A stretch of DNA of 64,000 bases. Origin: an uncultured Pseudomonadales bacterium. Its GTDB lineage: Bacteria; Patescibacteriota; Microgenomatia; UBA1400; PJMF01. The stretch is from contig CAZNOF010000009.1 of the NCBI GenBank assembly GCA_964574595.1, forward strand, positions 2,996 to 66,995, given 5' to 3'. The notes under the pieces were generated by a model, which was given only the letters and a program-made list of their open reading frames with translations, ran no database searches and had not been told where the DNA came from. Of this stretch, positions 10,092 through 25,786 are shown in pieces (positions within the stretch are counted from its first letter, which is position 1; each line of letters begins with the position of its first letter). Both the position numbers and the translations under genes were made by a program.

Positions 10092-10095
10092 ATGT

Positions 10096-10884
10096 TTACT
10101 CGACACAAGAAGGAGCTGCTCCTGGTTGGCTCTTCAAAGAGGTACAAATGGAAACAATGGTTCCGGGATTTTGAGCGTCTGCATAGGTCGTCGGTTTAAC
10201 TGTAGGAGGATCAGCCCAGTTATAAATTGCTTCTGCATCTATGGCTCGCATGTTCACACAACCATGACTCATCATGTGCCCAAAGTTATTATGCCAGTAG
10301 GCACCATGTAAACTGTAGCCTTGAGCTTTAGAAACTTTGTCGTTGTAAAAAAACATAACAAAGGGCACGTTCGGCAGATCATATGCATCTGCACCTTCGC
10401 CACCACTCATTCGGGTAGAACGGAGTTTAACCCAAATTTTGTAATCACCGGTAGGTGTTGGGTTCCATTTGCCTGTCGAAACTAGCGTACTCATGATGAG
10501 GGTATTACCTTGATAAGCAAAAAGGGTCTGGGTACTCAAATCAACATAGATATGCTTTTCTCCTGCTGAAGTTTCTGCACCTAGCACTTTTGATGGATTC
10601 GGTTTTTCAGCAAGGTCAATGACGGGAGGAGTAACCTCTTGGCCTTCAAAATAGCCTGGAACATTGTTCTCAACCGTGGCGGTTAAATTTTTGACACAAC
10701 TAATCGAGTTGGCACACATCGCAGTTTTCTTTTGAACTACATGAAGAACACCACCTGTTATGGCAATGCCAGCGACAATGGCAATCAAACATTCCAAGAA
10801 AGATATAGTGGGAATTGAAAACCGAGTAGGTTTTTTCTTTTTGAAAGTTAAACGTTTTTTCACTCTTTTAAGAGTAGTATGCAC
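10096..10884 (-). CDS. L,D-transpeptidase (YkuD fold)
   Basis: Catalytic motif HGAYWHNNFGHMMSHGCVNM with an N-terminal membrane anchor. Confidence 0.75.
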   Translation of the reverse strand: MHTTLKRVKKRLTFKKKKPTRFSIPTISFLECLIAIVAGIAITGGVLHVVQKKTAMCANSISCVKNLTATVENNVPGYFEGQEVTPPVIDLAEKPNPSKVLGAETSAGEKHIYVDLSTQTLFAYQGNTLIMSTLVSTGKWNPTPTGDYKIWVKLRSTRMSGGEGADAYDLPNVPFVMFFYNDKVSKAQGYSLHGAYWHNNFGHMMSHGCVNMRAIDAEAIYNWADPPTVKPTTYADAQNPGTIVSICTSLKSQPGAAPSCVE

Positions 10885-10923
10885 AAGAGGAGAAGTAAAG
10901 ATTGCAATCTTACGACATCTTTG

Positions 10924-11580
10924 CTAATTCAGTTCTTCAACCGCAACTTTTAACTGGTTTTCTGCATGAACAAAGACAAATGCAATTGGTCTATCTAAGG
11001 TGTTTTTAACATACAGATTTTGTTTACTACTTACATTTTTATCGCCAGGCACGTAATAAATGGCCGTCCCAAATTCTTTTGATACTTCTGGAATAGCTGC
11101 GAAGTCGTGCCTCGTTGGCGCTTCAACTTCCAATCCTGCTTGCCTAGCAACCACATTCATAAAGGAGGCTAAATGGCAAACCCCATCACCAACTAACCAT
11201 CCATCTGACTTAAAACCTTCAGTAGATGAAAAATGTGCGTTCGTTGTCTTGACGACTGATGGGGTGTATTCATCGACTGTTAAATCGTGGAAAGCAAAAG
11301 ACTTGCCTGGCAGCAAAACAAAGGAAAAGCTAGGTTGATTGCGAACTTTCTCCCAGTCCACTTTCTCTCCAACTTTTGTTTGACCTTCCATGTAAGAGAG
11401 AGTGAGCAGAATATTATCAACAAACACATCGTTCACAAAAGAATTCTTATACCGATCTGTCAAAGAGTATGCTTGAACTGACAGCACTTGAGGAGATGGT
11501 GCAGAAATAGGCTTTTGAGGAACAGGAGCAGCAGTCACAAAAAGCGTTATAACTGCCGAAATTAAAGCGGATGTATTCAT
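10924..11580 (-). CDS. VanW-like secreted protein
   Basis: LPGKSFAF...GDGVCHLASFMNVVARQAGL...TRHDF...KNTLDRPIAFVF matches the VanW consensus (PGexFSF, GGGVCQVSTTLYNA). Signal peptide present. Confidence 0.55.
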   Translation of the reverse strand: MNTSALISAVITLFVTAAPVPQKPISAPSPQVLSVQAYSLTDRYKNSFVNDVFVDNILLTLSYMEGQTKVGEKVDWEKVRNQPSFSFVLLPGKSFAFHDLTVDEYTPSVVKTTNAHFSSTEGFKSDGWLVGDGVCHLASFMNVVARQAGLEVEAPTRHDFAAIPEVSKEFGTAIYYVPGDKNVSSKQNLYVKNTLDRPIAFVFVHAENQLKVAVEELN

Positions 11581-11639
11581 AGAAAAGAGTGGTTATCTTC
11601 GCACAATATTTGGTAAATATCAAGCAACCTAGCTAAGGT

Positions 11640-11668
11640 TTGATGGAGTTGGTGGGCTAGGTTATAAT
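11640..11668 (+). promoter_or_regulatory. sigma-70-like promoter TTGATG-N17-TATAAT ending 7 nt before the ATG, giving a leaderless transcript
   Basis: -35 at 11640-11645 and -10 at 11663-11668. ATG at 11676. Confidence 0.4.
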
Positions 11669-11675
11669 TTGAGAT

Positions 11676-12017
11676 ATGATTGGAAATAAAGAACGAAAAG
11701 ACTCTCAGTTACCACTTCAGTTTCCTGGGGAAGGAGTCTTCGGGCAAGCACTTGCTGCAAGTGAAGCAGATGAAGATAAGCTAGACTTCCTGTTTAGACT
11801 TCACTTATCAGTTGATGATCGAAAATTCCTCATTCGTCATCAGCTTTTTACACTAGAAGACATCCAAGAGACTATCATTGGCGCCGAAACTGGTATATAT
11901 AAAACACCAGGACTCACAGAAGAAAGATTACTGCGACTAAGAGCCTGTTTGGCAGAGTTTCAAACGAGAGATCCAGATGCAGAACTGAAGTGGGCACTGT
12001 CACAAAGAACCTACTAA
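11676..12017 (+). CDS. hypothetical protein (113 aa)
   Basis: ORF with the leaderless-type promoter above. No confident domain assignment. Confidence 0.4.
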   Translation: MIGNKERKDSQLPLQFPGEGVFGQALAASEADEDKLDFLFRLHLSVDDRKFLIRHQLFTLEDIQETIIGAETGIYKTPGLTEERLLRLRACLAEFQTRDPDAELKWALSQRTY

Positions 12018-12022
12018 TCTTT

Positions 12023-12772
12023 ATGACTTCTCTCCATTCGTTGCACTACAAAGATCTTTTTCAAAAAAACTTTCAACTTTCTCCACTTAAATTAACAGTT
12101 TCGTCAGAAACCAAAGTCTCGATTCTTTCTGACTGTCACCTGGGAAAAATGTTCGACAAAAACCAGTTTCTTCAATTAAAGTCTATAATTTTAAGTGCTG
12201 ACCAAATCGTCATTAATGGAGATTTTTGGTTTAATGAGAAAACAAGTTTTAATGAGTTCATGGACTCTCCCTGGGCGGCACTGTTTCCACTTTTAAAGAG
12301 AAAAAATGCTATTTACTTGTTTGGAAACCATGACATGCCGGCTTTCTCTGATGAGCGAATTCTCTTGTTTTGCAACCAAGCAGGATTTCAACTCAAGCTG
12401 ACTGCTGGCACGGTTAAACTGCACGTAGAGCATGGGCACTTGCTCGTTTCCAATGCGGTCAAGAAAATCTTAAGAATGTTTGAAAATAAACCAAAACTTT
12501 TTGGCAAAATCACCTCTCCTTTTGAAATTGTAAATGAGATCGGGCTAAAGCACTTCAATCGGAAGCGCGGACGATTGACGAGAGTCATGAATCTCGGCTA
12601 CAAGAAAAAAAGACTTACAGTCAGCTCAGAGGATGAATACTTTGTAATGGGTCACACGCATGTACTAGAATTAGATGAGAAGAGAAAATATATTAATTTG
12701 GGACGAACTCACAATGGAGATTTCTCGTACTTAACAATTTATCAAAACAACGCCGAGCTAATTGTTCTGTAA
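12023..12772 (+). CDS. calcineurin-like metallophosphoesterase
   Basis: Motifs DCHLG, GDFW, GNHD and GHTH. The tracked start at 11990 is GTG; the first ATG at 12023 abuts the upstream stop. Confidence 0.6.
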   Translation: MTSLHSLHYKDLFQKNFQLSPLKLTVSSETKVSILSDCHLGKMFDKNQFLQLKSIILSADQIVINGDFWFNEKTSFNEFMDSPWAALFPLLKRKNAIYLFGNHDMPAFSDERILLFCNQAGFQLKLTAGTVKLHVEHGHLLVSNAVKKILRMFENKPKLFGKITSPFEIVNEIGLKHFNRKRGRLTRVMNLGYKKKRLTVSSEDEYFVMGHTHVLELDEKRKYINLGRTHNGDFSYLTIYQNNAELIVL

Positions 12773-12797
12773 ATTGGCAATTTTTAAGAAAGCACTC

Positions 12798-13754
12798 ATG
12801 GATAAAAAAAGCGTAAATCTTGGATCAGGAACTGATTATATTAAAGGTTGGATTAATGTTGATATTGAGCCTTTTTATCACCCTGATGTAATTGCCGATC
12901 TACAGAAACCATTCCCTTTTAAAAGTAATTCAATTGATGAAATTAAAGCTTCAGATATTATCGAACACTTTACCAAAGAAGACGGTGAGATCTTCATTCG
13001 TGAATGTCACAGAATTCTCAAAGTTGGTGGAATAGTTACTTTTCGATCACATGATGTCTATGAAATTTTTAAAAAGTTTGCAAATGATCCTGATGTACTA
13101 ATCCATTTTTTGTACGGAAATACTGAAGTCACGGGAGTTTTTGGAGCTCACAAATTCGCATATACAAAAGAATTTGCCGAGTTTATTCTCACAAAGATTG
13201 GTTTTTCAATAGTTTCATATACCACCGAAGACACGAACTTTGTGTTGGTAGGGAAGAAGGAAAAAACGAAACCTCCATTACCTTTAAAAATTGGTATTCT
13301 GCTTCAACCTTCAAGAGCCTCGCTTGTGGAAGAAATCAAAAAACAACCCGACATTTCCGTCGTTGATGTCAAAGAAAAAAACCAAAGCTACGATGTTGTT
13401 CTTGCTTCAGGCGGATTACAAAAAATACTTGCTTCGATAATGTGTTGGATCTCAGACACACCAGTTGTTTGGTTGGAAGATCAAGAGGAGGTGGAGGTGA
13501 TAGGAAATACATTCATCTCAAAATTGCTCTATCGGCTAGTCCGACACATTCCTCAACGAGTGATTGTTCAGGACAAAAATTCTTCAATCTCATTCATGAT
13601 GCACACCCGCGTTTCACTCTCAAAAATAGTTTTCTTAACTCCCGGTGAAAATATAAATACAGCAAAAGAGACTGCTCAACAAAAAGTGGCTCATGAAGTT
13701 TCAAAAGTAGTTGACAGCTTAAAAGATGCTGTTATTTTGAGCTCAATAACGTAG
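12798..13754 (+). CDS. class I SAM-dependent methyltransferase-like N-terminal domain with an uncharacterised C-terminal half
   Basis: VNLGSGTDYIKGWINVDI...LKVGGIVTF resembles Rossmann MTase motifs I and post-II. The tracked start at 12762 is TTG; ATG at 12798. Confidence 0.4.
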   Translation: MDKKSVNLGSGTDYIKGWINVDIEPFYHPDVIADLQKPFPFKSNSIDEIKASDIIEHFTKEDGEIFIRECHRILKVGGIVTFRSHDVYEIFKKFANDPDVLIHFLYGNTEVTGVFGAHKFAYTKEFAEFILTKIGFSIVSYTTEDTNFVLVGKKEKTKPPLPLKIGILLQPSRASLVEEIKKQPDISVVDVKEKNQSYDVVLASGGLQKILASIMCWISDTPVVWLEDQEEVEVIGNTFISKLLYRLVRHIPQRVIVQDKNSSISFMMHTRVSLSKIVFLTPGENINTAKETAQQKVAHEVSKVVDSLKDAVILSSIT

Positions 13755-13764
13755 TAAAACTTAA

Positions 13765-13805
13765 AGAGGCACACCCAGTGGGAAGTGCCTCTCGATTTCT
13801 TTTTC
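13765..13805. terminator. intrinsic terminator between convergent genes
   Basis: Hairpin AGAGGCAC-N12-GTGCCTCT followed by CGATTTCTTTTTC. Confidence 0.45.
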
Positions 13806-13851
13806 AACAGGTTGTACTGCCTATTCAAGAAACTTTTTTTCATTTGGATGA

Positions 13852-14424
13852 TTACTTTTGCTTGCTAAGACAGGTCAGCGGATAGGTATCTGTTTTCGTG
13901 TTTCCGTACTTATCAGCCGTATCATGATTCAGCTGATAATTCCCTGCATCATCCAGCTTCCAGACCGTGAAACCATTTTTAGTCTTGGAATGGTATTTCC
14001 CGACGGATTTATCGAGGATGAAGCTCGTGAGCTTCTGGTTGATGTACTCGACACCTTTCGGACCAAGTACGATTACATATTGACTGTCGCAATAGGGGGC
14101 AAACGCAGCACCACAGACTTGACGTCCGTCATCGCAACTGTCGTTTGCGTCTCCGATGTCAGGTGCTTGAGCGTAGTCATTATGACTACCCGGCTCACCA
14201 GAACCACCGGATCCGTTATTAGAACAGTAGGGGGGCGGGTCGTTTCTGCCGTCAGGGTTGTTGCAACCAAAGATTGGGGTGACTGTGACTGGCTGCGCCA
14301 AGCTTCCAAACTTCGCATCCTTCGCAGAAACTGGCGTAAGCTCTCCCCAAACGAACGCTACTGATGTGAGCAAGAGGCCAGCAATAATCGATAATACCAC
14401 TGCGAGCAAACGTTTTTTGACCAT
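13852..14424 (-). CDS. secreted Gly/Cys-rich hypothetical protein
   Basis: Signal peptide MVKKRLLAVVLSIIAGLLLTSVAFVWG. AGGAG lies 9 nt upstream of the ATG at 14422-14424. The opposite-strand ORF 13858-14364 has no such features. Confidence 0.45.
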   Translation of the reverse strand: MVKKRLLAVVLSIIAGLLLTSVAFVWGELTPVSAKDAKFGSLAQPVTVTPIFGCNNPDGRNDPPPYCSNNGSGGSGEPGSHNDYAQAPDIGDANDSCDDGRQVCGAAFAPYCDSQYVIVLGPKGVEYINQKLTSFILDKSVGKYHSKTKNGFTVWKLDDAGNYQLNHDTADKYGNTKTDTYPLTCLSKQK

Positions 14425-14604
14425 CGAACAATACTCCTGATTTCTAAGCAATCCAAATGTTAATGTGCGGCAACCGAACCAATTCTCGCCAAACGAGACA
14501 GTCCAGTTACTTTACAGTGGTCGAAATGACCTCACTGTATTATAAATGAGAAAAGTGAAAAAAGACAGATAATTGGGACAAATTAGGATTTCAAAATACT
14601 TTAT

Positions 14605-14681
14605 TGGTGAGTCAGGTGGGAATCGAACCCACGACATCCTCCTTAAGAGGGAGGCGCTCTAACCAGCTGAGCTACTGACCC
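14605..14681 (-). tRNA. tRNA-Lys (anticodon CUU), CCA encoded
   Basis: Reverse complement is GGGTCAG-TA-GCTC-AGCTGGTTA-GAGC-G-CCTCC-CTCTTAA-GGAGG-ATGTC-GTGGG-TTCGATT-CCCAC-CTGACTC-ACCA. Confidence 0.9.
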
Positions 14682-14703
14682 AAAGTTATCTCTTCGGCTT
14701 CCG

Positions 14704-14712
14704 ATTATACCA
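14704..14712 (-). promoter_or_regulatory. extended -10 element TGGTATAAT for tRNA-Lys
   Basis: Reverse complement of 14704-14712 is TGGTATAAT, ~22 nt upstream of the tRNA 5' end. Confidence 0.35.
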
Positions 14713-14773
14713 AGCTCGCCCCCAGAGTGAAATGGCTGTTCACGATTTCCAGAAAACTGTAGAATAGCAGCTA

Positions 14774-15922
14774 ATGACTAGAATCATCACATTTTTCCTC
14801 GCGCTCTTCAGCTTTCTGGGATTAGCAGCCATTCCTGTGAATGCACAATCAACTCCCGCAGCAGCTCCACAACAAGAGTATATAAATGGGAAAATTCATC
14901 GAATTACAGACGAAATTCGGATTCCTGGTGACTCTCCTGATCAATTTTTTTACATCCAAAAAATAGAAGTTGAACGATCTGATAACCACCAAACGATACA
15001 GCTTCAAGCTGGGACGGAAATGCAGCCACTGAGTGCAAGTCAAAAATATAGTCCTGGAACCAGCGTCATTCTCGTCAAGCAGTCCGATGCGAATGGCCAA
15101 ACCCAATACGCTATTGCTGATATTTACAGAATCCCAGCCATGTTTTGGCTGTTGGCCGGATTTTTACTATTAGTTCTTTTGACTGCTCGCAAGAAAGGCA
15201 TCTCAGCAATTCTCGGCATGTTTATGAGTCTAGGTGTCCTGATGTACTTTATTGTGCCTCATATCATCCAAGGGGAAAACCCAATTATCATTGCTCTGAT
15301 TGGCTCTGTTGCCGTGTCAATTATCACGGTTTATATGTGTCACGGATGGAGTCTGGAATCTCATCTGGCCATTTTTTCAATGATGCTTAGCTTAGTTGCA
15401 GTAGGACTGCTTTCCTATGCTTCTGTCCAAGCGGCACACTTGGCTGGTTTGGGTAGTGAAGACGCAATGTACCTTCAATTTGGATCAACAGCAAAAATTA
15501 ATCTTCAAGGTCTTCTGTTAGGTGGCATGATGATTGGCGCCTTGGGTGTTCTTGACGATATTACCTTGGCTCAAATTTCCGTCATTCATCAACTGCACGA
15601 TGCCAAACCAGAAATTGATTTTACTGAACTGTATAACAGGGGACTAGAGGTCGGAAAAGATCATGTCGCATCACTCGTAAACACCTTGATTTTGGCATAT
15701 GCTGCTGGCAGCTTGCCACTCTTCTTATTATTTACCATAAACACGAGTCAACCGGCTTGGGTCACTTTAAACAGTGAAGTAATTGCTGAGGAAGTTGTCA
15801 GAACTTTAACTGGCTCCATTGGTCTGGTCTTAGCAGTTCCAATTGCCACATTTATTGCCAGCTATTTTATGATTTGGAGAAAACCAGCACCATCAACTCA
15901 TAAACACTTACATCAGCATTGA
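14774..15922 (+). CDS. YibE/F-like polytopic membrane protein
   Basis: Signal peptide, a periplasmic domain, then about 6 TM helices including LGGMMIGALGVLDDITLAQISVIH, a YibE/F-like motif. TGtAGAAT lies 8 nt upstream of the ATG. Confidence 0.45.
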   Translation: MTRIITFFLALFSFLGLAAIPVNAQSTPAAAPQQEYINGKIHRITDEIRIPGDSPDQFFYIQKIEVERSDNHQTIQLQAGTEMQPLSASQKYSPGTSVILVKQSDANGQTQYAIADIYRIPAMFWLLAGFLLLVLLTARKKGISAILGMFMSLGVLMYFIVPHIIQGENPIIIALIGSVAVSIITVYMCHGWSLESHLAIFSMMLSLVAVGLLSYASVQAAHLAGLGSEDAMYLQFGSTAKINLQGLLLGGMMIGALGVLDDITLAQISVIHQLHDAKPEIDFTELYNRGLEVGKDHVASLVNTLILAYAAGSLPLFLLFTINTSQPAWVTLNSEVIAEEVVRTLTGSIGLVLAVPIATFIASYFMIWRKPAPSTHKHLHQH

Positions 15923-15924
15923 AA

Positions 15925-16914
15925 TTATTTATTCACTGCAACACTCTTCATAGCCTCTTGGTAGGCGCGATACTGTTGAGTTGGGTTTCCGCGAGCATCT
16001 AAGAATGTGAACTGAGCGAATGGTCCAGGAGCACCTTGCAGCACAAATGGGGTAACGCCCACGATTCGATCATCATTCCAAATATTTTGCGTAGCGTACA
16101 GATAATAATTTGATAACCAGCGATGGTTGGCAGTAGTATCAACCCAGCCAGTTTCGGTAATAAACGTTTTTAACTCTAAACCAGACTTTTCTTTGAGATA
16201 ACTTAGCTCCGTTTGGTAACCACGTAAAGATTCTTTTCCTGTTTGTTTTGGTGAGGAACTAAATCCAGGATTTGGGTAGGAGTGGGAGTTCCAGTAATCG
16301 ACATATTGGAAGACAGCGTCATTTTCATTTCGCATCTCATTCAAATAGGCAAAGGCTTCTTTGGTTTCTGATGAGTTAGGTGCCGCCAAATCCATCGCCG
16401 CCGGCAAAATTTGGTAATTCATATCTTCCGATTTTGCCCAGTTGCTGGTGAAAATCAGTGTGTCAGCATATCCTCGTGGATCAAGCGTATTGCCCCATTC
16501 TTTAGCATGATTTACCTCATTAAAAGCAATGATGTACTTTTCTTTTGTTGGCCAGTTTAGCGCACTTAAAAACGAAATGAGATCGACAATATCTTTGTGA
16601 GTAGGAATGGCCCAAGCGCCATTTTCAGCCTTCGTGCTCAAGCGAACGATGGGAATCATCTTTTGTTCGCGAGCATAGTCAAAGAAGGTTTGCCAATCCT
16701 TTTGTTTACTAAGATCATTTAAGGTCAAAGGAATTGTTACATAATGCCATTGGTCAGGTAAGCCGTTCCCCCTCAAGAGCTCTCGAGCCATTGGAGCTTC
16801 ACTAGGACTGAGGATGTGGATACCCAAAACAGACCCATCTTGGGCATAGGCAGGTTTAGCCATAAAAAGACTAAAAATGAGTGGTAAGAGGGCTAAAAGC
16901 ACCTTCTTTTTCAT
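15925..16914 (-). CDS. secreted putative glycoside hydrolase (clan GH-A TIM barrel, GH5-like)
   Basis: Signal peptide. IAFNEVNH (NE acid/base) and FITETGW (nucleophile Glu) are spaced as in GH-A enzymes. Confidence 0.4.
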   Translation of the reverse strand: MKKKVLLALLPLIFSLFMAKPAYAQDGSVLGIHILSPSEAPMARELLRGNGLPDQWHYVTIPLTLNDLSKQKDWQTFFDYAREQKMIPIVRLSTKAENGAWAIPTHKDIVDLISFLSALNWPTKEKYIIAFNEVNHAKEWGNTLDPRGYADTLIFTSNWAKSEDMNYQILPAAMDLAAPNSSETKEAFAYLNEMRNENDAVFQYVDYWNSHSYPNPGFSSSPKQTGKESLRGYQTELSYLKEKSGLELKTFITETGWVDTTANHRWLSNYYLYATQNIWNDDRIVGVTPFVLQGAPGPFAQFTFLDARGNPTQQYRAYQEAMKSVAVNK

Positions 16915-17000
16915 ATATTATAGGATATCATTTTTTCGTCTTCTCGGCAAGGTTAAAAAGATGCATCCAGCTTAAATCTATGTTATAGTGCTTTACACGA

Positions 17001-17687
17001 ATGAAAAAAGCTGCCATTATTTTTGCCTGGTTTCTCTCGAGTACAGGCGCAATTTTGTGTTTAGTAATTTTGCTAAATACACTCAATTCCTCGGCTAACA
17101 CTCGGGTAGCTCTAGGCCAACCAGATCTGGCTAACAGTATGGTGGCATCTGCAGCTCAAGGATACGGTCAAAACCTTGGTGAAGTGAAGGGAATTACCAC
17201 GACTGTCCAGGCAGGAGATGCCCGGGAAGTACTTCTCGCAAACTTTTTAGCCAGGTATGACTCTCCACTTAAACCATATGATGAATATGCACACAAAATT
17301 GTGGTTATCTCTGATAAGTATAATATTGATTTCCGTCTCTTGCCAGCTATAGCTATGCAGGAGAGCAACTTGTGTAAAGTCATTCCACCAGGCACATATA
17401 ACTGTCTAGGTTTTGGTATTCACAAACGGGGAACACTCGGCTTTGATAATTATGAAGACGCATTTGATCGAGCTGGAAGAGAACTCAAAGCCAATTATAT
17501 TGACCGAGGACTCGTTACTCCTAAACAAATTATGTCGAAATATACCCCGAGCAGTAACGGAAGTTGGGCAGAATCTGTAAATCAGTGGATGTCTGAAATT
17601 CGCTATGACGATCACGATAAGGGCCTGGAACTCAAAACAAATACAGACTTAAACGAATTCATTGCTAGTCCTTCAGCTAAACCATAA
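17001..17687 (+). CDS. membrane-anchored hypothetical protein, possibly a lysozyme-like or SLT-like muramidase
   Basis: N-terminal TM. LPAIAMQESNLCK...CLGFGI resembles the SLT/GEWL catalytic Glu region. Weak. Confidence 0.3.
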   Translation: MKKAAIIFAWFLSSTGAILCLVILLNTLNSSANTRVALGQPDLANSMVASAAQGYGQNLGEVKGITTTVQAGDAREVLLANFLARYDSPLKPYDEYAHKIVVISDKYNIDFRLLPAIAMQESNLCKVIPPGTYNCLGFGIHKRGTLGFDNYEDAFDRAGRELKANYIDRGLVTPKQIMSKYTPSSNGSWAESVNQWMSEIRYDDHDKGLELKTNTDLNEFIASPSAKP

Positions 17688-17780
17688 TCCTCTCACACTT
17701 TTCTCCAGATCTACTTTCCTCAAATGAAGTAATCACTTTTATGATTTGAAGTGTCTTTATTCGATTTAGACTGATGTATA

Positions 17781-17809
17781 TTGACATATTTATACATATT
17801 TGATATACT
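17781..17809 (+). promoter_or_regulatory. near-consensus sigma-70 promoter TTGACA-N17-TATACT in a convergent intergenic region
   Basis: -35 at 17781-17786, a 17-nt spacer, -10 at 17804-17809. No CDS follows on the + strand. Confidence 0.5.
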
Positions 17810-17815
17810 TCGATA

Positions 17816-17886
17816 TAGATCAGTAGGTTCCTCACTGGGGTACGTACTGATACCAAAGACACCGAGCAAACAGCTCGGTTTTTTTG
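17816..17886 (+). ncRNA. candidate small RNA (~70 nt) bracketed by the promoter above and an intrinsic terminator
   Basis: Stem ATCAGTA/TACTGAT (17819-17825 with 17845-17851), then the terminator CCGAGC-AAACA-GCTCGG plus T7 (17862-17886). Confidence 0.4.
17862..17886 (+). terminator. intrinsic terminator
   Basis: CCGAGCaaacaGCTCGG followed by TTTTTTT. Confidence 0.6.
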
Positions 17887-17917
17887 TACTATTTTCCCCT
17901 TGTTGTCGTGTGAAGAG

Positions 17918-20035
17918 TTAGTTATGAGATAAAAAGATTGCTGGTTTAGCAATCGGGAAGAGAGCTCTCACAATCCAATTAAAATCGGGTTCAGATATGA
18001 ACTGGAGCAAGTCTGCTTCACGACTCCAATCAGCTCCCAAATGACTCATTAAGGGAACTAGATAGTTGCTGGCAGTTGTATGGTCTTCCAAAGCCAGTTG
18101 CCGAATCGATTCTGTCAGTAAGATTGTTTTCACCTTTTTTAGCACTTCCGGTTCTTGGTCGGATTTCAGGAGCGCTTTGCCAAGTTCAAGGAGCTGGCCA
18201 CTCATTTCCCCATCTTCACTTTCCGACTCTAGTAGCTCCCGCTTAGAAATCCAATCAAGGAAATGAACGACTTGAGTTGAAATATCCCTCTGGAATAGTG
18301 CTATCGGCAAGGTTTGATTATCAATTTCAATCATCATTGATGGAAAGGTTAAACTGACTTGTCTCAGGACCTCTTGCATGATTGGAAGCGAGTCAATGAG
18401 ATACGATAAATTATCTGGGGTATTGATCAGCTCACTTGTAGCTGAGATTTCTTTTACACTACGAAAAATATCTGTGCTCATTTTAATGAGATTATTCACA
18501 ATGAAGGAATTTCCACTATTTATTAAAGTCGGAACAGATTTTTGGATAACCTCAGATGCCACACTGTTTCCAAGAGGCTCGTCACCAATCTCTCGGAAAG
18601 CTAACTCAGAAACATTTTCCACAATTCTAATCTGGTTCAGATACATACCAATTTCTGCTGCCATTGACAGTGCGGAACCTGACAAATTCTGTCTCTTTTT
18701 CTCTGATGACTCTTTCTCATTCTCTTCTCTTTCGTCGGCCGCTTCTAAGAAAGAGACTTGTTTTGAAATAAAAGCATCAAGTCGACTAACGAGCTGTTTT
18801 TTTCGTAGAGGACTGGCATTTTCTATAACAAACTTCAAGATAGTTCTGTAACTCTGCTCATTAAAATAACCACCTTGGAGGACGAACAACAGAACATCAA
18901 TACAGTCACTTACTAATTCAGGATGTTGAAAAGAAGCCAATATTTCAAATTTCTCTTTTTCTGACAACTGCTTAATGCAGTAAACGAGATGAGATTCTAA
19001 TTTTTTTCTCGCGTCAGGAGGAATCTCTTGATTTTCTTCAAGGAATCTCGCCAATAACTCCAACTGAAACAACTCATACATGCCGGCTACGGTGCCCTCT
19101 GCCACAACATCATAAAATAATTGCCAATCATGGAGTGAATAGGCAGCAAGTAATACCAGATGACTATGCCTACTTTCATAGTCAGCATACGACTCTGGAA
19201 ATTGTCGTTTTGTGTTTTCAGAGTGCATGACTTTTTTTAAATTGTTCGGTTGAGATTTGAAGTATCCATCAATAAGTGTCTGAATATTTTTACGAAAGGT
19301 CTGATCCGTTTCGAATTTAGAATGGACGAAAGAGTCGTCGTAGTGAAGATCAATGATTTGCTGAATTTTCTGCTCATCACCCAAGCGAGCTGCTAACTTT
19401 GAAATTGTTTGAAGTTGGTATGAAAATAAGCGAAGCCGTTTCGAGCGCTTCTCGTCACTGTTATTCTCGGCGGCATCATCCTCGTACTCATAACTCATTG
19501 AGTTTTTTTCCTGATCATGCTTTGACAGTCGTTTAAACTCCATCTGATACATTTTTTCAAGCTGTGAAGGTCTTTTAAGCTCTTCAGTTGTTTGATATTG
19601 CCAAAATGCCTGAGCTACATGAAGATCTTCTGTAAGCTCACAGGTATCTAGGTAGCGTAACCATGATGAAGAATCAAATACCTGACTCAAGAACGCATCA
19701 ATATCCATTCTTTCTGTGAACCATTCAGCCTGTTTTTCTGGTTTCACTTCCAGACGATCCATCGCATAAATGATTCTGATCAGCTCGCTGCAAAAGACTG
19801 GGTTATCACTTTTCAAGCCTGTAGCAAAAATTTCTAGATCTCTGAGAGGAGAAAAGAAACTTGAACCTGTGAGCTGGTTTTCCTCACCAGTTTCACTCAC
19901 ACCATATAGCGTTTTAAATTTGGCAATCAAAACGTCGGCTGCGTGATGAATCGTGAGCGTATCTAGAATTACATCTAGTTTCTTATTTTGTTCAGGAAAT
20001 CGTGGTGCTTCAGGAAATTCAATTGAATGGGGCAT
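17918..20035 (-). CDS. large acidic hypothetical protein (705 aa)
   Basis: Long intact ORF with an ATG start and no recognisable motif. Glu/Asp-rich, alpha-helical character. Confidence 0.5.
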   Translation of the reverse strand: MPHSIEFPEAPRFPEQNKKLDVILDTLTIHHAADVLIAKFKTLYGVSETGEENQLTGSSFFSPLRDLEIFATGLKSDNPVFCSELIRIIYAMDRLEVKPEKQAEWFTERMDIDAFLSQVFDSSSWLRYLDTCELTEDLHVAQAFWQYQTTEELKRPSQLEKMYQMEFKRLSKHDQEKNSMSYEYEDDAAENNSDEKRSKRLRLFSYQLQTISKLAARLGDEQKIQQIIDLHYDDSFVHSKFETDQTFRKNIQTLIDGYFKSQPNNLKKVMHSENTKRQFPESYADYESRHSHLVLLAAYSLHDWQLFYDVVAEGTVAGMYELFQLELLARFLEENQEIPPDARKKLESHLVYCIKQLSEKEKFEILASFQHPELVSDCIDVLLFVLQGGYFNEQSYRTILKFVIENASPLRKKQLVSRLDAFISKQVSFLEAADEREENEKESSEKKRQNLSGSALSMAAEIGMYLNQIRIVENVSELAFREIGDEPLGNSVASEVIQKSVPTLINSGNSFIVNNLIKMSTDIFRSVKEISATSELINTPDNLSYLIDSLPIMQEVLRQVSLTFPSMMIEIDNQTLPIALFQRDISTQVVHFLDWISKRELLESESEDGEMSGQLLELGKALLKSDQEPEVLKKVKTILLTESIRQLALEDHTTASNYLVPLMSHLGADWSREADLLQFISEPDFNWIVRALFPIAKPAIFLSHN

Positions 20036-20062
20036 TTAGGTGCCGAATTATAGCATGCGCTG

Positions 20063-20148
20063 TGCCGAGAACAGGAATCGAACCTGCACGCCTTTTAAGG
20101 GGCACTGGATTCTAAGTCCAGCCTGTCTACCAATTTCAGCATCTCGGC
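20063..20148 (-). tRNA. tRNA-Leu (anticodon UAG), CCA not encoded
   Basis: Reverse complement is GCCGAGA-TG-CTG-AAATTGGTAGA-CAG-G-CTGGA-CTTAGAA-TCCAG, a long variable arm TGCCCCTTAAAAGGCGTG, CAGG-TTCGATT-CCTG, then TTCTCGGC-A. Confidence 0.85.
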
Positions 20149-20229
20149 TTGGATGTAATTTTACTACATCAAGCTCTAATTTGATCCATTGACTTTGGAC
20201 ACCGTCATTGTCCATAATAAACCCGAAAT

Positions 20230-21507
20230 ATGAACACCATCACATGCCCTCATTGCCACCAACAAATTGATATCGACGAAGCAGTCAGCCATCAAGCAGA
20301 AGCAAAAGTCACCGCTCAGTTTCAAAAAGAGAAAGCTGCTTTAGAAAAGACTCAGCAAGAACTCCAAAAGAAGCTTGATGAGCAGGCTCAAAAGCAAAAA
20401 GCAGAATTAGAAAGCACCCTCGCTCAACAAGAATTAAAAATAAAGAAAGAGTTATGGGAGAAGGCTCAGTTCGAAGCACAAAAAAAGATTCAAGAGTCGA
20501 GTGGGAAAATTCAAAAAGATCTGGAAGAACGATTAAAAGAGCAAGAAAATCGAGCCAAGCAAGCGGAGGCAGCTGAGTTAGAGATGCGGAAAAAGCAACG
20601 GGAGTTAGAGCAAGAAAAGGTTCAGTTCCAGTTAAAACTAGAACGGGCCCTAGACGAAAGAATGAAAGAAGAAGTTGAAAAACTCAGTAAACAAAAAGAT
20701 GATCAAGCCTCACTCAAAGAAAAAGAGATGCAAAAGCAAATTGACGACATGAAAAAACTAGTTGAGGAAGCCACACGAAAAGCGTCTACTGTTTCTCAAC
20801 AACTTCAGGGAGAAGTCATGGAACTGCAAATTGAAGATCTGTTGAGGGAAGCCTTTCCCGGAGATCTCATAGAAGAAGTGAAAAAGGGTCAACTTGGTGC
20901 CGATATTTTACAAACTGTAAAGAATAACTTTGGTAAAACTGTTGGGATTATTGTCTGGGAATCCAAGCAGACGTTAGTATTCCAAGATAAATGGTTGTCA
21001 AAACTGCGTGAAGATGCCAGAGCCAGTGGAGGTTCGATTGCGGTACTCGTCACACGAAAACTCCCAGATGGAATTACGACCTGTGCCGAACGAGAGCGCG
21101 TTTGGATCACCGGTATCGACTTCGTCTTACCACTAGCCCAGTTACTACGCCAAACTTTACTCAAAGTTGACCAAGAGAAGACCAGTCAGAACGGAAAAGA
21201 CGTCAAAGCAGAAATGCTGTACCAATATATAAACAGTCAAGAGTTTATTGGCACCATTGAGGGCGTCGTTGAAAGCTTTAGAGAGCTCCGAGATGACTTG
21301 GACCGTGAACGTACAGCGATGCAAAATTTATGGAAGAAAAGAGAAAAACAGATTTTGCGTTTAGCAACTCATGCAGCGCATATGTATGGCGGAGTACAAG
21401 GTATTGTGGGAAATTCTCTTCCCGGAATTAATGGTTTAGAGTTAGATGGTGGCAGCGACACCATTCAAATTGAAGAAAGTTCGAAGACACAAAATGGACT
21501 TTTTTAA
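20230..21507 (+). CDS. DUF2130-like protein with an N-terminal zinc ribbon, a long coiled coil and a conserved C-terminal domain
   Basis: CPHCHQ...(ribbon), a K/E/Q-rich heptad region from residues 30-190, and a C-terminal globular domain. Possible promoter TTGACT (20188-20193)...CATAAT. Confidence 0.4.
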   Translation: MNTITCPHCHQQIDIDEAVSHQAEAKVTAQFQKEKAALEKTQQELQKKLDEQAQKQKAELESTLAQQELKIKKELWEKAQFEAQKKIQESSGKIQKDLEERLKEQENRAKQAEAAELEMRKKQRELEQEKVQFQLKLERALDERMKEEVEKLSKQKDDQASLKEKEMQKQIDDMKKLVEEATRKASTVSQQLQGEVMELQIEDLLREAFPGDLIEEVKKGQLGADILQTVKNNFGKTVGIIVWESKQTLVFQDKWLSKLREDARASGGSIAVLVTRKLPDGITTCAERERVWITGIDFVLPLAQLLRQTLLKVDQEKTSQNGKDVKAEMLYQYINSQEFIGTIEGVVESFRELRDDLDRERTAMQNLWKKREKQILRLATHAAHMYGGVQGIVGNSLPGINGLELDGGSDTIQIEESSKTQNGLF

Positions 21508-21523
21508 AAATCGCACCACTAAA

Positions 21524-22186
21524 ATGAACTATCAAATTCAGCACCATCCAAGGGCACAACACATTAAAATCAAAGTGACCGCACAGGCAGAAGTAATTGT
21601 GGTAGCACCTCGAGATTGCCCAACTTTTTTCATTGATCGCTTCGTCAATCAGCATCAAGAATGGATAGAGAAAACAGTGGCCCAAGTAAAAGCCAATAGG
21701 CCACTCAAAAAAGATGCTGACGAAGTTTTACTATTTGGCAAAACGTATCGCAAAATCATTGGCAACCGGTTGGAATTTCCATTAGGAGTGCGGGCAACTG
21801 AGGACAGACTGATTATCACACCCGTTACAGAAACAGCCACTTCAATTGATAAAAGTCTAAATCAATTCTTAAAGAGCACCGCAGAAAAATACATTACTCC
21901 TCGTACTCAGCAATTGGCAAAAAAAATGAAGATTACCTACAAAAGCATTTCGTACAAAAATCAAAAAACTCGATGGGGAAGCTGTAGTTCTGAAGGTAAC
22001 CTTAATTTTAATTGGAAGCTCGTCCACTCACCACCAGCCGTCATCGACTATGTCATTATCCATGAACTCGCACACCGCACCGAAATGAATCACTCAGCAG
22101 ATTTTTGGGAGATCGTTCGAACCTTCGACCCAGAGTACTTAAAGCACAAGGGTTGGCTAAAAAGACAGGGTATGGATCTAGGCTAA
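21524..22186 (+). CDS. YgjP/DUF45-family metal-dependent hydrolase (SprT-like zincin)
   Basis: WGSCSSEGNLNFNW...IIHELAHRTEMNHS. Start chosen at MNYQIQ (21524) so the gene does not overlap the upstream CDS. The tracked ATG at 21446 lies inside that upstream gene. Confidence 0.7.
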   Translation: MNYQIQHHPRAQHIKIKVTAQAEVIVVAPRDCPTFFIDRFVNQHQEWIEKTVAQVKANRPLKKDADEVLLFGKTYRKIIGNRLEFPLGVRATEDRLIITPVTETATSIDKSLNQFLKSTAEKYITPRTQQLAKKMKITYKSISYKNQKTRWGSCSSEGNLNFNWKLVHSPPAVIDYVIIHELAHRTEMNHSADFWEIVRTFDPEYLKHKGWLKRQGMDLG

Positions 22187-23674
22187 GTACTTTTTCTCAA
22201 GATATTCTACTAGAAACGTAGGATTGGTATTTTGACCAGTCGCTTTTTGCATTAATTCTGCAGGTTCAAACATTGACCCATGTTGCCAAATATTTTCCTT
22301 AAACCAATTGAAGTAGGAACTGAAGTTTCCGTCAGAAATTTCTGCTTCCCATGTTGGATGAGCTTTTTGAAATGAATTCAGTAGCTGGGCAGCATTCAAA
22401 TTACCCAAAGTATAGGTAGGAAAGTATCCCAAGTTACCCCAAGCCCAATGAATGTCTTGTAGCACACCTTCTTTGTCGGTTGGTGGTTCAATCCCCAATA
22501 AATCTTTCATCTTTGCTCGCCATGCCTCAGGCAAATCATTCACACCTAATTTCCCAGTCATCAGCTCAACTTCTAGTTCATATCTCAGAATGATATGCAG
22601 ATTATAGGTAATTTCGTCCGCCTCGGTTCTAATCAAAGAAGGTTGAACGGTGTTTAATGCCTGAACTAACTGACCTACTTCAATTGACTGAAGTTCCGGG
22701 AAATGGCCAACTAAAATTGGGAAAAAGTGCTGCCAGAAAGAATTTGATCGACCAATTACATTTTCTAAAAATCTCGACTGTGACTCATGAATTCCTAGTG
22801 AGACTCCACCATCCAGACCTAGAGCTAGATATTTTGGATCACTATTTTGCTCGTATAGACCATGTCCTAACTCGTGAATCATACCCATGACAGTGAAAGA
22901 ATTATCATGCTCATCGAAATGTGTATTGATGCGAGTATCGTTGGCTGAAATAGAGATTTCAAAAGGGTGCTCGACATCCCCGAACCGACCGCGACTCATA
23001 TCAAAGCCGATTTTTGTGACCATCTCTTTTAAAAACTGCTCTAATTTTTGATGGTCTAATCTCACTGAGTTCAGTGGGTTTGTGACTATTGTCTGTTTTT
23101 TCAAGACTTTCGGAAGCAAGGTTTGTAGCCCTTTCTTCAGATTCAGAAACATTGGCTGTAACATCTCAATCGTCAAATTTTCTTCGTAGTCATCTAACAG
23201 GACGTTGTAGGGATGTGCATTAGAATCAAGGAAGTGAGCGTACTTCTTGCGGTTTTCAATCACTCTTTCTAAATGTGGTGCAAAAATTTGATAGTTGTTT
23301 GTTTGTTTCGCTTCAATCCAGGCATTGTATGAGGCATCAACCACTTGGTCAGTTTCTTCCACAAATTCTTTTGTCAGCAGGACGGACTTTTTGAGGCTTC
23401 TCTGCGTATGCAACACAGAACGAGATTCTATTTCTGATAACGAATCTTTTTGCGCTGCTAGCTCATCAACTAACTTTACAAAGGCTGGATCGGTGGTCAG
23501 TTCGTGTGCAAAACCTGACAAGATTGAAATCGTTTCACCTCTGTCTGCCGCCGCTCCTTTTGGCAACCCGGTCTCTCTGTCCCAACTAAGCACTGCCTGC
23601 GCAGAATTAAATGCTCGAAGCACGCGTAATTTTTCGATATATTGGGCGAGCCCATCTTGGACTTTTTTGGACAT
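22178..23674 (-). CDS. M32 carboxypeptidase (Taq-like)
   Basis: HELGHGLYE zinc motif, DIHWA and GYFPTYTLG signatures. Confidence 0.8.
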   Translation of the reverse strand: MSKKVQDGLAQYIEKLRVLRAFNSAQAVLSWDRETGLPKGAAADRGETISILSGFAHELTTDPAFVKLVDELAAQKDSLSEIESRSVLHTQRSLKKSVLLTKEFVEETDQVVDASYNAWIEAKQTNNYQIFAPHLERVIENRKKYAHFLDSNAHPYNVLLDDYEENLTIEMLQPMFLNLKKGLQTLLPKVLKKQTIVTNPLNSVRLDHQKLEQFLKEMVTKIGFDMSRGRFGDVEHPFEISISANDTRINTHFDEHDNSFTVMGMIHELGHGLYEQNSDPKYLALGLDGGVSLGIHESQSRFLENVIGRSNSFWQHFFPILVGHFPELQSIEVGQLVQALNTVQPSLIRTEADEITYNLHIILRYELEVELMTGKLGVNDLPEAWRAKMKDLLGIEPPTDKEGVLQDIHWAWGNLGYFPTYTLGNLNAAQLLNSFQKAHPTWEAEISDGNFSSYFNWFKENIWQHGSMFEPAELMQKATGQNTNPTFLVEYLEKKYLA

Positions 23675-23725
23675 ATTTTCCTCTGATACCTGACAAATGG
23701 GGTGGTGACTAATATACTACCGAAT

Positions 23726-24403
23726 ATGTTCATTCTCCACGGCGAAAATATGGTCCAATCGCGCAATCTGCTGAGTACCTTGATTGATCAAGCTCGATTA
23801 CAAGGAAAACAACTTCTCCGCTTGGAGGCAAAAAGACTTGAACCAAAAGAGTTAAGCGAGCAGCTCGGCGCAGAAAACTTGTTTGGTGAATCTAGATTTG
23901 TCGTCATTGAAGAACTTCATTCTTTACCCACATCGCAACGAAAAAATCAGCTAATAAAAATTTTAAGCAGCTATTCTGAAGATGCTGATTTTGTGTTGTG
24001 GGAAAAAAGGCAATTAACACCAACCATGTTGAAGCAGTTTCCCCAGGCAAGAAATCAAGAATTCAAACTTACGAAATCTCTTTTCCAGTGGCTTGATGGT
24101 GTGAATGGACAGTCAAAATTGAATCAACGACTGTTTGAGTCAGCAATTGATGAAGATGGGGAGATGATGTGCTTTACAATGCTGATCCGTCAAATCCGAC
24201 TTCTAATACAGGTCAAAGAAGGTCAGACACAAACCCTAGCACCATTTATGTTGACGAAACTGAAAAGACAAGCTGAAACATTTACCCTTGCACAATTACT
24301 CCAATTTCATCGTCGTTTACTCGAGCTCGATTTAGCACAGAAAACATCTGCCAATAAGTTAAGCCTTACCCAAGAACTTGAACTTTTATTGATTGGGATG
24401 TAG
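23726..24403 (+). CDS. holA: DNA polymerase III delta-subunit-like protein (short)
   Basis: N-terminal FILHGEN...LFGESRFVVIEE pattern of HolA. Only 225 aa; low-similarity call. Confidence 0.35.
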   Translation: MFILHGENMVQSRNLLSTLIDQARLQGKQLLRLEAKRLEPKELSEQLGAENLFGESRFVVIEELHSLPTSQRKNQLIKILSSYSEDADFVLWEKRQLTPTMLKQFPQARNQEFKLTKSLFQWLDGVNGQSKLNQRLFESAIDEDGEMMCFTMLIRQIRLLIQVKEGQTQTLAPFMLTKLKRQAETFTLAQLLQFHRRLLELDLAQKTSANKLSLTQELELLLIGM

Positions 24404-24430
24404 GCTACTCACGTAGCGAAAGGAAACAGT

Positions 24431-25786
24431 ATGCAAGTTGATGCTTCAATTTTTAAGGCTTATGACATCCGTGGTATTTATGGTCAAAACCTGAATGAGG
24501 AATTAGGTGAGGCTGTGGGAAAAGCGTTTGTTAAAGTGTTGGGAGCTCAAACAGTCGTAGTGGGAAGAGACGCTCGTGTTTCAAGTCCATCACTTCATGA
24601 TGCCGTAATTAAAGGGTTAACGAGTGTGGGAGCGAACGTCATCGACGTTGGCATGGTTTCCACAGACATGTATTACTACGCATGCGCCACCAAAGGCTTT
24701 GCAGGCATCATGGTTACTGCCAGTCATAATCCAAAAGAATATAACGGCTTTAAAATGGTCAAAAAAATTCCTTACTTGCTTTCGGGAGATGAAGGCATTC
24801 AAGATATTCGAAAAGTCATTGAAGCTGATGAATTTCCAGCTCCTGCTGCCACACCAGGTACAGTAGAAAAATGGGAGATCATGGACGGCTTTATTGAAAA
24901 GATTCTTTCACTTGTCGACGTGACTCAGCTGAAACCAATGAGCATCATTTGTGACACAGCAAATGGAATGGTTGGTCCATCAATTACAGAACTGTTTAAG
25001 AAAATCCCTCAAGTTAAAGTCACACCAATGTACTTTGATCCAGATGGTACTTTCCCAAATCATGGTGGTGATCCATTACAAGAAGAAAATCGAAAAGAAC
25101 TTCAACAACGAGTCCCAGCAGAAGGCGCTGACTTGGGATTTGCCTTTGACCCAGACGGAGATCGTTTCTTTTGTATCGATAAAAAAGGTCGATTTGTTTC
25201 TGGCGACTTCATGACAGCAATTTTGTCACGCTACTTCTTACAGAAGAATCCTGGGGCAACTATTGTTTATGACATTCGCGCTTCTCACGCAGTTCCAGAT
25301 ACGATCAACTCATTAGGTGGTAGACCTCTCTACAACCGAGTTGGTCATGCATACATTAAGAAGAGAATGATGGATGAGAGTGCGGTTTTTGGTGGAGAAG
25401 TCACTGGCCATTATTATTTCAAGGACTTTTTCTTGTGTGACTCAGGTGTAGCTCCAATGTTGTATGTCATGGATCTACTCTCACATTCAGATAAAACCCT
25501 CGACCAGATCATCGATGAGTTGTCATCTGTTTACTACATCTCAGGCGAGATCAACACCAAAGGTGTCGATGGCAAAGCAGTGCTGGCAAAAATCGAAGCG
25601 CAATATGGCCCATCTGCTCAAGAAGTTTTGAAAGTTGATGGAATCTCACTGGTTTATCCAGATTGGACATTCAACGTCAGAACCTCAAATACAGAACCAT
25701 TGGTTCGTTTGAATCTTGAAGCCAAAACAAAAGAAATGATGGAAGCTAAAAGAGATGAAGTCTTAGCCGTCATTCGCGGAAACTAA
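24431..25786 (+). CDS. phosphomannomutase/phosphoglucomutase (alpha-D-phosphohexomutase)
   Basis: Active-site loop TASHNPKEYNGFK, metal loop DPDGDR and sugar loop GGEVTGHYYF. Confidence 0.85.
   Translation: MQVDASIFKAYDIRGIYGQNLNEELGEAVGKAFVKVLGAQTVVVGRDARVSSPSLHDAVIKGLTSVGANVIDVGMVSTDMYYYACATKGFAGIMVTASHNPKEYNGFKMVKKIPYLLSGDEGIQDIRKVIEADEFPAPAATPGTVEKWEIMDGFIEKILSLVDVTQLKPMSIICDTANGMVGPSITELFKKIPQVKVTPMYFDPDGTFPNHGGDPLQEENRKELQQRVPAEGADLGFAFDPDGDRFFCIDKKGRFVSGDFMTAILSRYFLQKNPGATIVYDIRASHAVPDTINSLGGRPLYNRVGHAYIKKRMMDESAVFGGEVTGHYYFKDFFLCDSGVAPMLYVMDLLSHSDKTLDQIIDELSSVYYISGEINTKGVDGKAVLAKIEAQYGPSAQEVLKVDGISLVYPDWTFNVRTSNTEPLVRLNLEAKTKEMMEAKRDEVLAVIRGN

Follow-up and report, generated by a model that had tools for sequence, protein, structure and literature searches.

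In bacteria, independently transcribed small RNA (sRNA) genes have a conserved promoter of their own that keeps a constant spacing to the 5' end, and an intrinsic terminator directly behind a structured body, and several described groups show further traits that bear on the element reported here. The type I sRNAs of enterobacterial 3' untranslated regions (3' UTRs), such as DapZ and MicL, follow a coding gene in the same orientation. The C-rich loops of Firmicute sRNAs such as RsaE/RoxS and RNAIII pair with Shine-Dalgarno regions, and loops with the YUNR motif, of the kind seen in CopA, Sok, RNA-OUT and RNAI, reportedly speed antisense pairing. The element in question occupies positions 17781–17885 of the plus strand in a 64,000-nt stretch of contig CAZNOF010000009.1 (assembly GCA_964574595.1), hereafter the window, from a genome of the Patescibacteriota deposited as an uncultured Pseudomonadales bacterium. 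It lies in the 230-nt gap between two convergent open reading frames (ORFs), 17001–17687 (+) and 17918–20035 (−), and appears to be a complete sRNA gene, with a sigma-70-type promoter and a terminator placed as above, in a single copy within the 64-kb window. An initial annotation, drawn from the letters of the window, had read this site as a structured sRNA of about 70 nt with transcription of its own; the conservation of promoter, stem and terminator in relatives supports that reading, and we consider it very probable that a real, selected and independently promoted sRNA gene is present.

The locus shares with DapZ and MicL its position after a coding gene of the same orientation, an own promoter and, very probably, a terminator in common with that gene, but it has no sequence or structural relation to them, belongs to another phylum and has its promoter behind the stop codon, not within the coding sequence. 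As in RsaE/RoxS and RNAIII, the RNA is small, and an intrinsic terminator follows a stable hairpin whose C-rich loop (CCUCACC) is conserved; unlike them, it has a single C-rich motif, which reads CCUCACC rather than CCCC or UCCC, and no Rfam match. With CopA, Sok, RNA-OUT and RNAI it has in common the YUNR loop (C-U-C-A), mismatches in the stem (G·G, U·U or C·U) and a start essentially at the base of the hairpin, whereas nothing complementary is found on the opposite strand or nearby, and the gene is chromosomal and clade-wide, not on a plasmid or insertion sequence (IS) element. Finally, 4.5S RNA is matched in approximate size, in the single hairpin, the strong promoter and the 5' strand AGGU, and in having G opposite G a few base pairs beneath the loop. 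The loop, however, is UCACC and not GNRA, the 3' strand is ACGU and not AGCA, there is no asymmetric loop and the distance between motif and loop varies. Signal recognition particle (SRP) RNA was rejected on this loop, 3' strand and variable spacing, together with the absence of a match to any SRP model at E-values up to 10.

The orthologous locus was fetched from 80 species-representative Patescibacteria genomes, and 42 distinct hairpins were aligned with MAFFT (alignment A2, not fitted to a structure) to give a covariance model (R1). This model finds one match per locus, on the strand of the upstream 228-aa, peptidoglycan-hydrolase-like gene (ORF 17001–17687) and downstream of it, in 76 of 86 sources, among them 71 of the 80 GTDB species genomes; in the window the match covers 17817–17863 (53 bits, E 9e-12). 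In metagenome contigs, a pattern scan gave 80 loci, of which R1 accepts 11 and the other 69 are chance matches. The hydrolase gene stands just upstream in all 11 genuine matches, and no second genomic context was found among them. The arrangement of promoter, hairpin and terminator 3' of the orthologous gene, which the initial annotation had suggested looking for in relatives, is thus widely kept. No family match was found in the phage and plasmid collections searched, and the eight pattern matches in viral contigs were all rejected by the covariance model; a mobile-element origin was discarded, since these collections held nothing genuine. The predicted sRNA family is conserved across a large clade of Patescibacteria, also known as the candidate phyla radiation (CPR), whose records are named Pacebacteria, Woesebacteria and Microgenomates. 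Many of the genomes bearing the locus (L011–L090) are publicly titled 'uncultured Pseudomonadales bacterium', 'candidate division TM6' or 'Vitreimonas sp.', and these taxonomic labels look unreliable.

The TTGACA-N17-TATACT promoter of the initial annotation was found where it had been placed, with the −35 hexamer TTGACA at 17781–17786, a 17-nt spacer at 17787–17803 and the −10 hexamer TATACT at 17804–17809, followed by seven further bases before A17817. The spacer ends in the bases TGA, so that the −10 is of the extended type (TG, 17801–17802), a feature that had gone unmentioned. Within the window, two sites reach at least 11 of 12 promoter matches against 1.5 expected, and the promoter match in the window alone is not beyond chance, even if this is the only such site with a TG extension. 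Its significance comes instead from conservation among relatives. Of 83 distinct loci, 60 have TTGACA without deviation as the −35, and 77 match it at five or more of six positions; at least five of six matches to TATAAT are seen for the −10 in 66 of the 83, and the TG extension in 70. The spacer measures 17 nt in 54 loci, 16 nt in 25 and 18 nt in four, and an A follows the −10 at a distance of 7–8 nt in 81 of 83. The consensus, taken over about 55 loci, reads tttgat...taTTGACA..cTTATA.taaTtTG.TAtA.T. The initial annotation had itself raised the alternative that the hexamers are chance AT-rich sequence beside an ordinary terminator of ORF 17001–17687. The chance level in the window would fit such an account, but the conservation of all elements at fixed spacing across the 83 distinct loci, together with the covariation of the stem described below, excludes it, and we give this refuted explanation next to no credence.

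Further conserved features surround these hexamers. TTATA is conserved at positions 4–8 of the spacer (17790–17794 in the window), and relatives also conserve TTGAT repeats, phased at about 10 and 21 nt before the −35. In the window, this upstream region (17760–17780, +) carries TTCGAT at 17760–17765 and CTGAT at 17772–17776, and the repeat listing of the window places one direct and one inverted repeat there as well. The additional elements are possibly a regulator site or an UP-like element.

The sigma-70-type extended −10 promoter would start transcription at A17817. This A is the first position of the covariance model and is invariant in all 69 distinct sequences, for which reason it was taken as +1. 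The predicted transcript of about 68 nt runs from here to the end of the U-run (17817–17885, +) and in DNA letters has the order A-G-ATCAGTA-GG-TTCCTCACTGGGGT-ACG-TACTGAT-ACCAAAGAC, then the terminator, with its T7 ending at 17885. A 71-nt RNA covering 17816–17886 is predicted to fold with −31.5 kcal/mol, compared with −13.5 ± 2.7 kcal/mol for shuffled sequences (z = −6.7; none of 200 shuffles was as good), into two hairpins: an imperfect one of 33 nt (17819–17851, +) and the terminator. The lower stem of the first hairpin, P1, pairs ATCAGTA (17819–17825) with TACTGAT (17845–17851). These are the arms of the 7-bp stem-loop given in the initial annotation, which stands at its place; the hairpin is longer than described there, and runs on past a G·G mismatch. 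Above P1 lies a conserved internal motif formed by G17826·G17844, G17827-C17843 and U17828-A17842, and the apical stem pairs UCC (17829–17831) with GGG (17837–17839), closing the loop UCACU (17832–17836), for which the family consensus is UCACC.

The hairpin is followed by an A-rich single-stranded spacer (17852–17860, +) of sequence ACCAAAGAC (family consensus NNNAAAGA), in which AAA is near-invariant (62–67 of the 69 distinct sequences) and appears as AAA(G) in the family. This linker is able to pair with the U-tail, which in the predicted fold lengthens the terminator stem. The CCGAGC-aaaca-GCTCGG-T7 terminator of the initial annotation was confirmed at 17861–17885, its full form being ACCGAGC-AAACA-GCTCGGT (17861–17879, +) with the T-run at 17879–17885. 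It is detected on both strands and probably serves both directions. In all 83 loci a GC-rich hairpin stands at this place, of unrelated sequence but always pairing, followed by a T-run. Over the loci, the median length between the start and the last T of the run is 74 nt, the window version of about 68 nt being of the shortest type.

The body of the RNA is under marked constraint. Fifty-five consecutive columns (17801–17855, from the TG of the −10 through the ACCA after the hairpin) are 100% identical in four genomes, with hydrolase identities of 87% (L001), 77% (L003) and 63% (L010). Outside this block, close relatives keep the −35 while the promoter spacer drifts, the terminator loop gains one base, and in L003 the terminator stem changes in a compensatory manner from CCGAGC/GCTCGG to CCGAGT/ACTCGG. 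More distant relatives (57–60% protein identity) show the same architecture with another lower stem and a longer middle stem, which ranges from almost nothing in the window to four or five extra pairs. In the MAFFT alignment, six of the seven P1 pairs undergo compensatory double changes, as illustrated by CUCAGAA/UUCUGAG, AUCAGUA/UACUGAU, GUUGACA/UGUCAAC and AUCCGAA/UUCGGAU, and a single cell of P1 is unpaired. Over the whole hairpin, double changes occur at 10 of 16 pairs and 88.7% of cells are paired, compared with 79.4% in shuffles and 28–46% with slid partners. For covariation the hairpin scores 0.246; shuffles give 0.100 ± 0.008, none of 500 reaching the observed value, and slid partners give 0.02–0.04. 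RNAalifold independently returned the same P1, the G-C pair, the apical UCC/GGR stem and the 5-nt loop. At two pairs (4-43 and 19-29) U-G alternates with U-A, which points to an RNA of the plus strand only.

Among the 69 distinct sequences, A1, U4, G7, A9, G10, G11, C76, G77 and U78 are invariant or nearly so. These positions build the nearly invariant duplex motif 5'-AAGGU/5'-ACGUU, in which G10 faces G77 as a G·G mismatch. The second conserved part is the apical C-C-[U-C-A-C-C]-G-G, where at least 62 of the 69 have the loop CCUCACC together with the C-G pairs that close it, and at least 64 have C26-U27-C28-A29, which fits the YUNR U-turn motif. In one member (L048, 3313–3395) an extra hairpin of about 35 nt, GCCTTACTTCGGTAAGGT, is inserted 3' of the apical loop and would make the predicted hairpin branched.

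The same data bear on whether the element could be a gene for a small protein, or act as DNA. The initial annotation had noted that no suitable ORF lies inside, and indeed the transcript has no ATG or GTG. Two ORFs overlap it, of 46 aa on the plus strand and of 91 aa on the minus strand (17677–17952). In the closest relative an indel of 1 nt in the loop of the terminator disrupts the frame of both, and in L003 a tRNA-Leu gene lies directly behind the terminator, so that the 46-aa and 91-aa ORFs cannot exist there; the indel and this arrangement show that the overlapping ORFs are not genes. In GCA_040384245.1 (L001, 4699–4914, −) a gene caller annotated a 71-aa gene antisense over the sRNA, the counterpart of the 91-aa ORF of the window, which is probably a spurious annotation. 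This call speaks for a protein gene, just as the imperfect palindrome and the variable gene content immediately downstream would suit a recombination or attachment site beside a tRNA-Leu hot spot. The centre of the palindrome, however, varies from 11 to more than 40 nt and is unfit for a recombinase core, and the tolerance of U-G pairs on one strand only, as well as the conserved promoter and terminator, also speaks against these readings. Either explanation is very improbable.

No described RNA family accounts for the element. Rfam 15 (4227 models) was applied with gathering thresholds, and permissive scans at E-values up to 10 were made for the element and two relatives. An Rfam scan of this kind had been proposed in the initial annotation, and the element rises above threshold for no Rfam 15 family. 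Over the whole window only three tRNAs were returned, and region 17650–17960 yielded, at E-values up to 10, only a spurious mir-1277 match at 14 bits. Other members of the family scored at most 24 bits in Rfam 15, against thresholds of at least 39, the scores deriving from the generic terminator. Neither ARAGORN nor Rfam found a tRNA or tmRNA at 17781–17886. A CsrB/RsmZ-type sponge for CsrA was rejected because there is one functional hairpin and a loop without GGA, and the defining features of 6S RNA, Y RNA and the ribozyme classes are absent from the element. A riboswitch or cis-acting leader was rejected too, since what follows is a convergent tRNA-Leu gene or variable genes of the opposite strand, always after the terminator. 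Hammerhead, preQ1-I-like pseudoknot, K-turn and loop E folds were discarded because their defining nucleotides are absent or fall in covarying stem positions, and a minus-strand iron-responsive element and mimicry of a tRNA anticodon arm or T-arm on the same grounds. Full-text literature searches gave no description of this RNA. As far as the searched sources show, this is an undescribed sRNA family.

The 228-aa protein encoded at 17001–17687 (+) has 2771 homologues, all from metagenome-assembled genomes of Patescibacteria type where the source names it (Pacebacteria, Woesebacteria, 'Patescibacteria group'). Its profile matches the phage cell wall hydrolase 8yxk (E 1e-5) and, weakly, endo-beta-N-acetylglucosaminidases, and it carries an N-terminal hydrophobic segment. 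The profile match and the hydrophobic segment indicate an extracytoplasmic peptidoglycan hydrolase, membrane-anchored or secreted, and not an RNA-binding protein. The median distance from the hydrolase stop codon to +1 is 94 nt. In 16 loci it is only 31–60 nt, so that the promoter abuts the stop codon and a second terminator would not fit in between; in the window, no canonical terminator was found between 17688 and 17780. The hydrolase mRNA thus very probably ends at the sRNA terminator, with the sRNA embedded in the 3' end of the gene. In seven loci, 520–1100 nt, probably another gene, separate the hydrolase gene from the sRNA, and the promoter is still kept.

These distances are relevant to the alternative, also voiced in the initial annotation, that the region is simply the 3' UTR and terminator of ORF 17001–17687. 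That account survives in so far as the terminator is very probably common to the hydrolase mRNA, and fails in so far as the promoter is not a chance sequence. A more elaborate version holds that the element acts mainly in cis at the 3' end of the hydrolase mRNA, as a stabiliser, a processing site or a terminator module, and that the short transcript is secondary or functionless. Strict synteny favours it, the hydrolase gene lying upstream in the same orientation at the 76 loci and in the 11 metagenome matches, as do the 16 loci with the stop codon close to the start site, where the mRNA must run through the element. A cis element, however, needs no promoter, and yet 83 loci conserve the −35, TG, −10 and +1 A with constant spacing, and the promoter is retained even in the seven loci with a long insert. 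Nor does a terminator alone explain the invariant loop and the G·G motif. We consider a mainly cis-acting role improbable.

The explanation that we rank first, while holding it only tentatively, is a trans-acting regulator that pairs through its loop. The RNA of about 68 nt would fold at once into the imperfect 33-nt hairpin, with the A-rich linker and the intrinsic terminator following, and the stem would present the nearly invariant C-rich loop C-C-U-C-A-C-C. Acting in trans, this loop might pair with the G-rich, Shine-Dalgarno-like sequence GGUGAGG of one conserved RNA or several and thereby alter how these are translated or how stable they are, while the conserved G·G internal motif could serve as a site for a helper protein or for processing. 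The RNA has essentially no 5' tail, one functional hairpin and the terminator. A single grade for the very probable sRNA gene and this more tentative mechanism would, as a compromise between the two, stand at about even odds.

Several results weigh against pairing through the loop. Across 57 loci, no position of the loop complement (GGTGAGG and variants) is conserved in the 2.5-kb flanks, and the 5' region of the hydrolase mRNA pairs no better than random regions taken from that locus do (mean z +0.5). With the loop, the 52 translation-start regions of the window form weaker duplexes than random sequence does (−10.4 vs −12.0 kcal/mol), and no single one of them stands out as a target. Many first genes, moreover, appear to be leaderless or nearly so, which would leave a smaller pool of Shine-Dalgarno targets. 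And what persists best in the family is not the loop but the AAGGU/ACGUU duplex that contains the G·G mismatch: in the divergent members L054, L055 and L071 the motif is kept and the loop has changed (CCAUAA in L054 and L071, CUGAC in L055). A motif that outlasts the loop points to a protein-binding site, of which such behaviour is more typical.

As to the translation starts of the window, about 15 of the 52 long ORFs show a TATAAT-like box 6–11 nt before the ATG and no Shine-Dalgarno sequence. Such starts are found, for example, at 1416 (−), 1807, 2341, 4838, 16914 (−), 20035 (−), 20230, 23726, 36906, 42473, 44282, 48648 and 55251, and genes internal to operons carry GGAG, AGGA or GGAGGTG. 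A perfect 10-mer match to the loop at 61339–61348 was rejected as a target, being antisense inside a coding sequence.

The persistence of the duplex motif is the core of the principal competing explanation, according to which the RNA binds protein, as a component of a ribonucleoprotein (RNP), a scaffold or a sponge, and the AAGGU/ACGUU duplex with G·G is a sequence-specific protein site. A strong promoter would then yield an abundant, housekeeping-like RNA, whose loop would make an additional contact or have been acquired later. The invariance of G10, G11 and C76 and the near-invariance of G77, A9 and U78 are consistent with such a site, as is its survival where the loop diverges; the near-consensus promoter is, in its −35, TG and −10, stronger than the tRNA promoters of the window; and an RNA target was found neither in the flanks of the loci nor in the hydrolase leader or the window start regions. 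The distance between motif and loop, however, ranges from about 3 bp to more than 9 bp, with the 35-nt insertion in one member, which makes it unlikely that a single protein reads both. The neighbouring genes, which encode extracytoplasmic cell-wall enzymes, offer no candidate partner, and none of the defining features of SRP, 6S, CsrB or Y RNA is present. We regard a primarily protein-binding role as possible but rather unlikely. Less likely again, though worth naming, is an abundant, clade-wide housekeeping RNA of Microgenomates-type Patescibacteria in which the G·G motif is bound by protein and the anti-Shine-Dalgarno-like loop contacts the translation machinery or rRNA. If true, this would mean a new small RNP or ribosome-associated RNA specific to organisms with reduced genomes and unusual ribosomes, and not an ordinary mRNA-targeting sRNA. 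The fetched sequences contain no rRNA gene, and a resemblance of the loop complement to segments of E. coli 16S and 23S rRNA is no greater than chance would give.

Whichever role applies, the predicted sRNA is presumably important for these cells, since the near-consensus promoter, the identical body at 63% identity of the neighbouring protein and the wide presence argue for strong selection. A large part of bacterial diversity belongs to Patescibacteria; almost none of them has been cultured, and in their genomes, about 1 Mb in size, few regulators can be recognised. Neither Rfam 15 nor the full-text literature searches yielded a small-RNA family, regulatory or housekeeping, for the group, and the gene reported here is present in at least 70 species-level genomes. 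Its interest lies in the host group, in the degree of constraint and in the lack of an RNA regulator for the group in the searched sources. The sRNA would offer an easily scored marker in metatranscriptomes and a first handle on RNA-based regulation in Patescibacteria, and it corrects spurious 'hypothetical protein' calls over the locus in deposited genomes.

The wider surroundings are rich in envelope genes. The run at 9429–25786 holds, besides the peptidoglycan hydrolase, an L,D-transpeptidase (10096–10719), a VanW-like gene (10924–11580), a YibE/F gene (14774–15922), a secreted 329-aa protein and a phosphoglucosamine-mutase-like gene (24431–25786). The close association with the hydrolase gene in such surroundings hints at a link between the sRNA and cell-wall remodelling, though a speculative one.

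On the other side of the sRNA, the slot between its terminator and the convergent tRNA-Leu(TAG) gene is variable, spanning 17886–20148 in the window, 4830–6230 in L001 and 4880–4985 in L003. In the window it contains the convergent 705-aa orphan ORF (17918–20035, −), which has no Pfam domain, lies outside the sRNA unit and precedes tRNA-Leu(TAG) at 20062–20148. In L001 the slot contains a Ser/Thr kinase, and in many others (among them L003 and L006) nothing. The slot beside the tRNA-Leu gene looks like an insertion hot spot. In most members, the lower stem has CUCAGAA or CUUAGAA as its 5' strand (columns 3–9 of alignment A2, at 17819–17825 in the window), a sequence identical to the anticodon loop of tRNA-Leu(CAG/UAG), the usual neighbour being tRNA-Leu(TAG); this identity is probably a coincidence, since the stem covaries to unrelated sequences.

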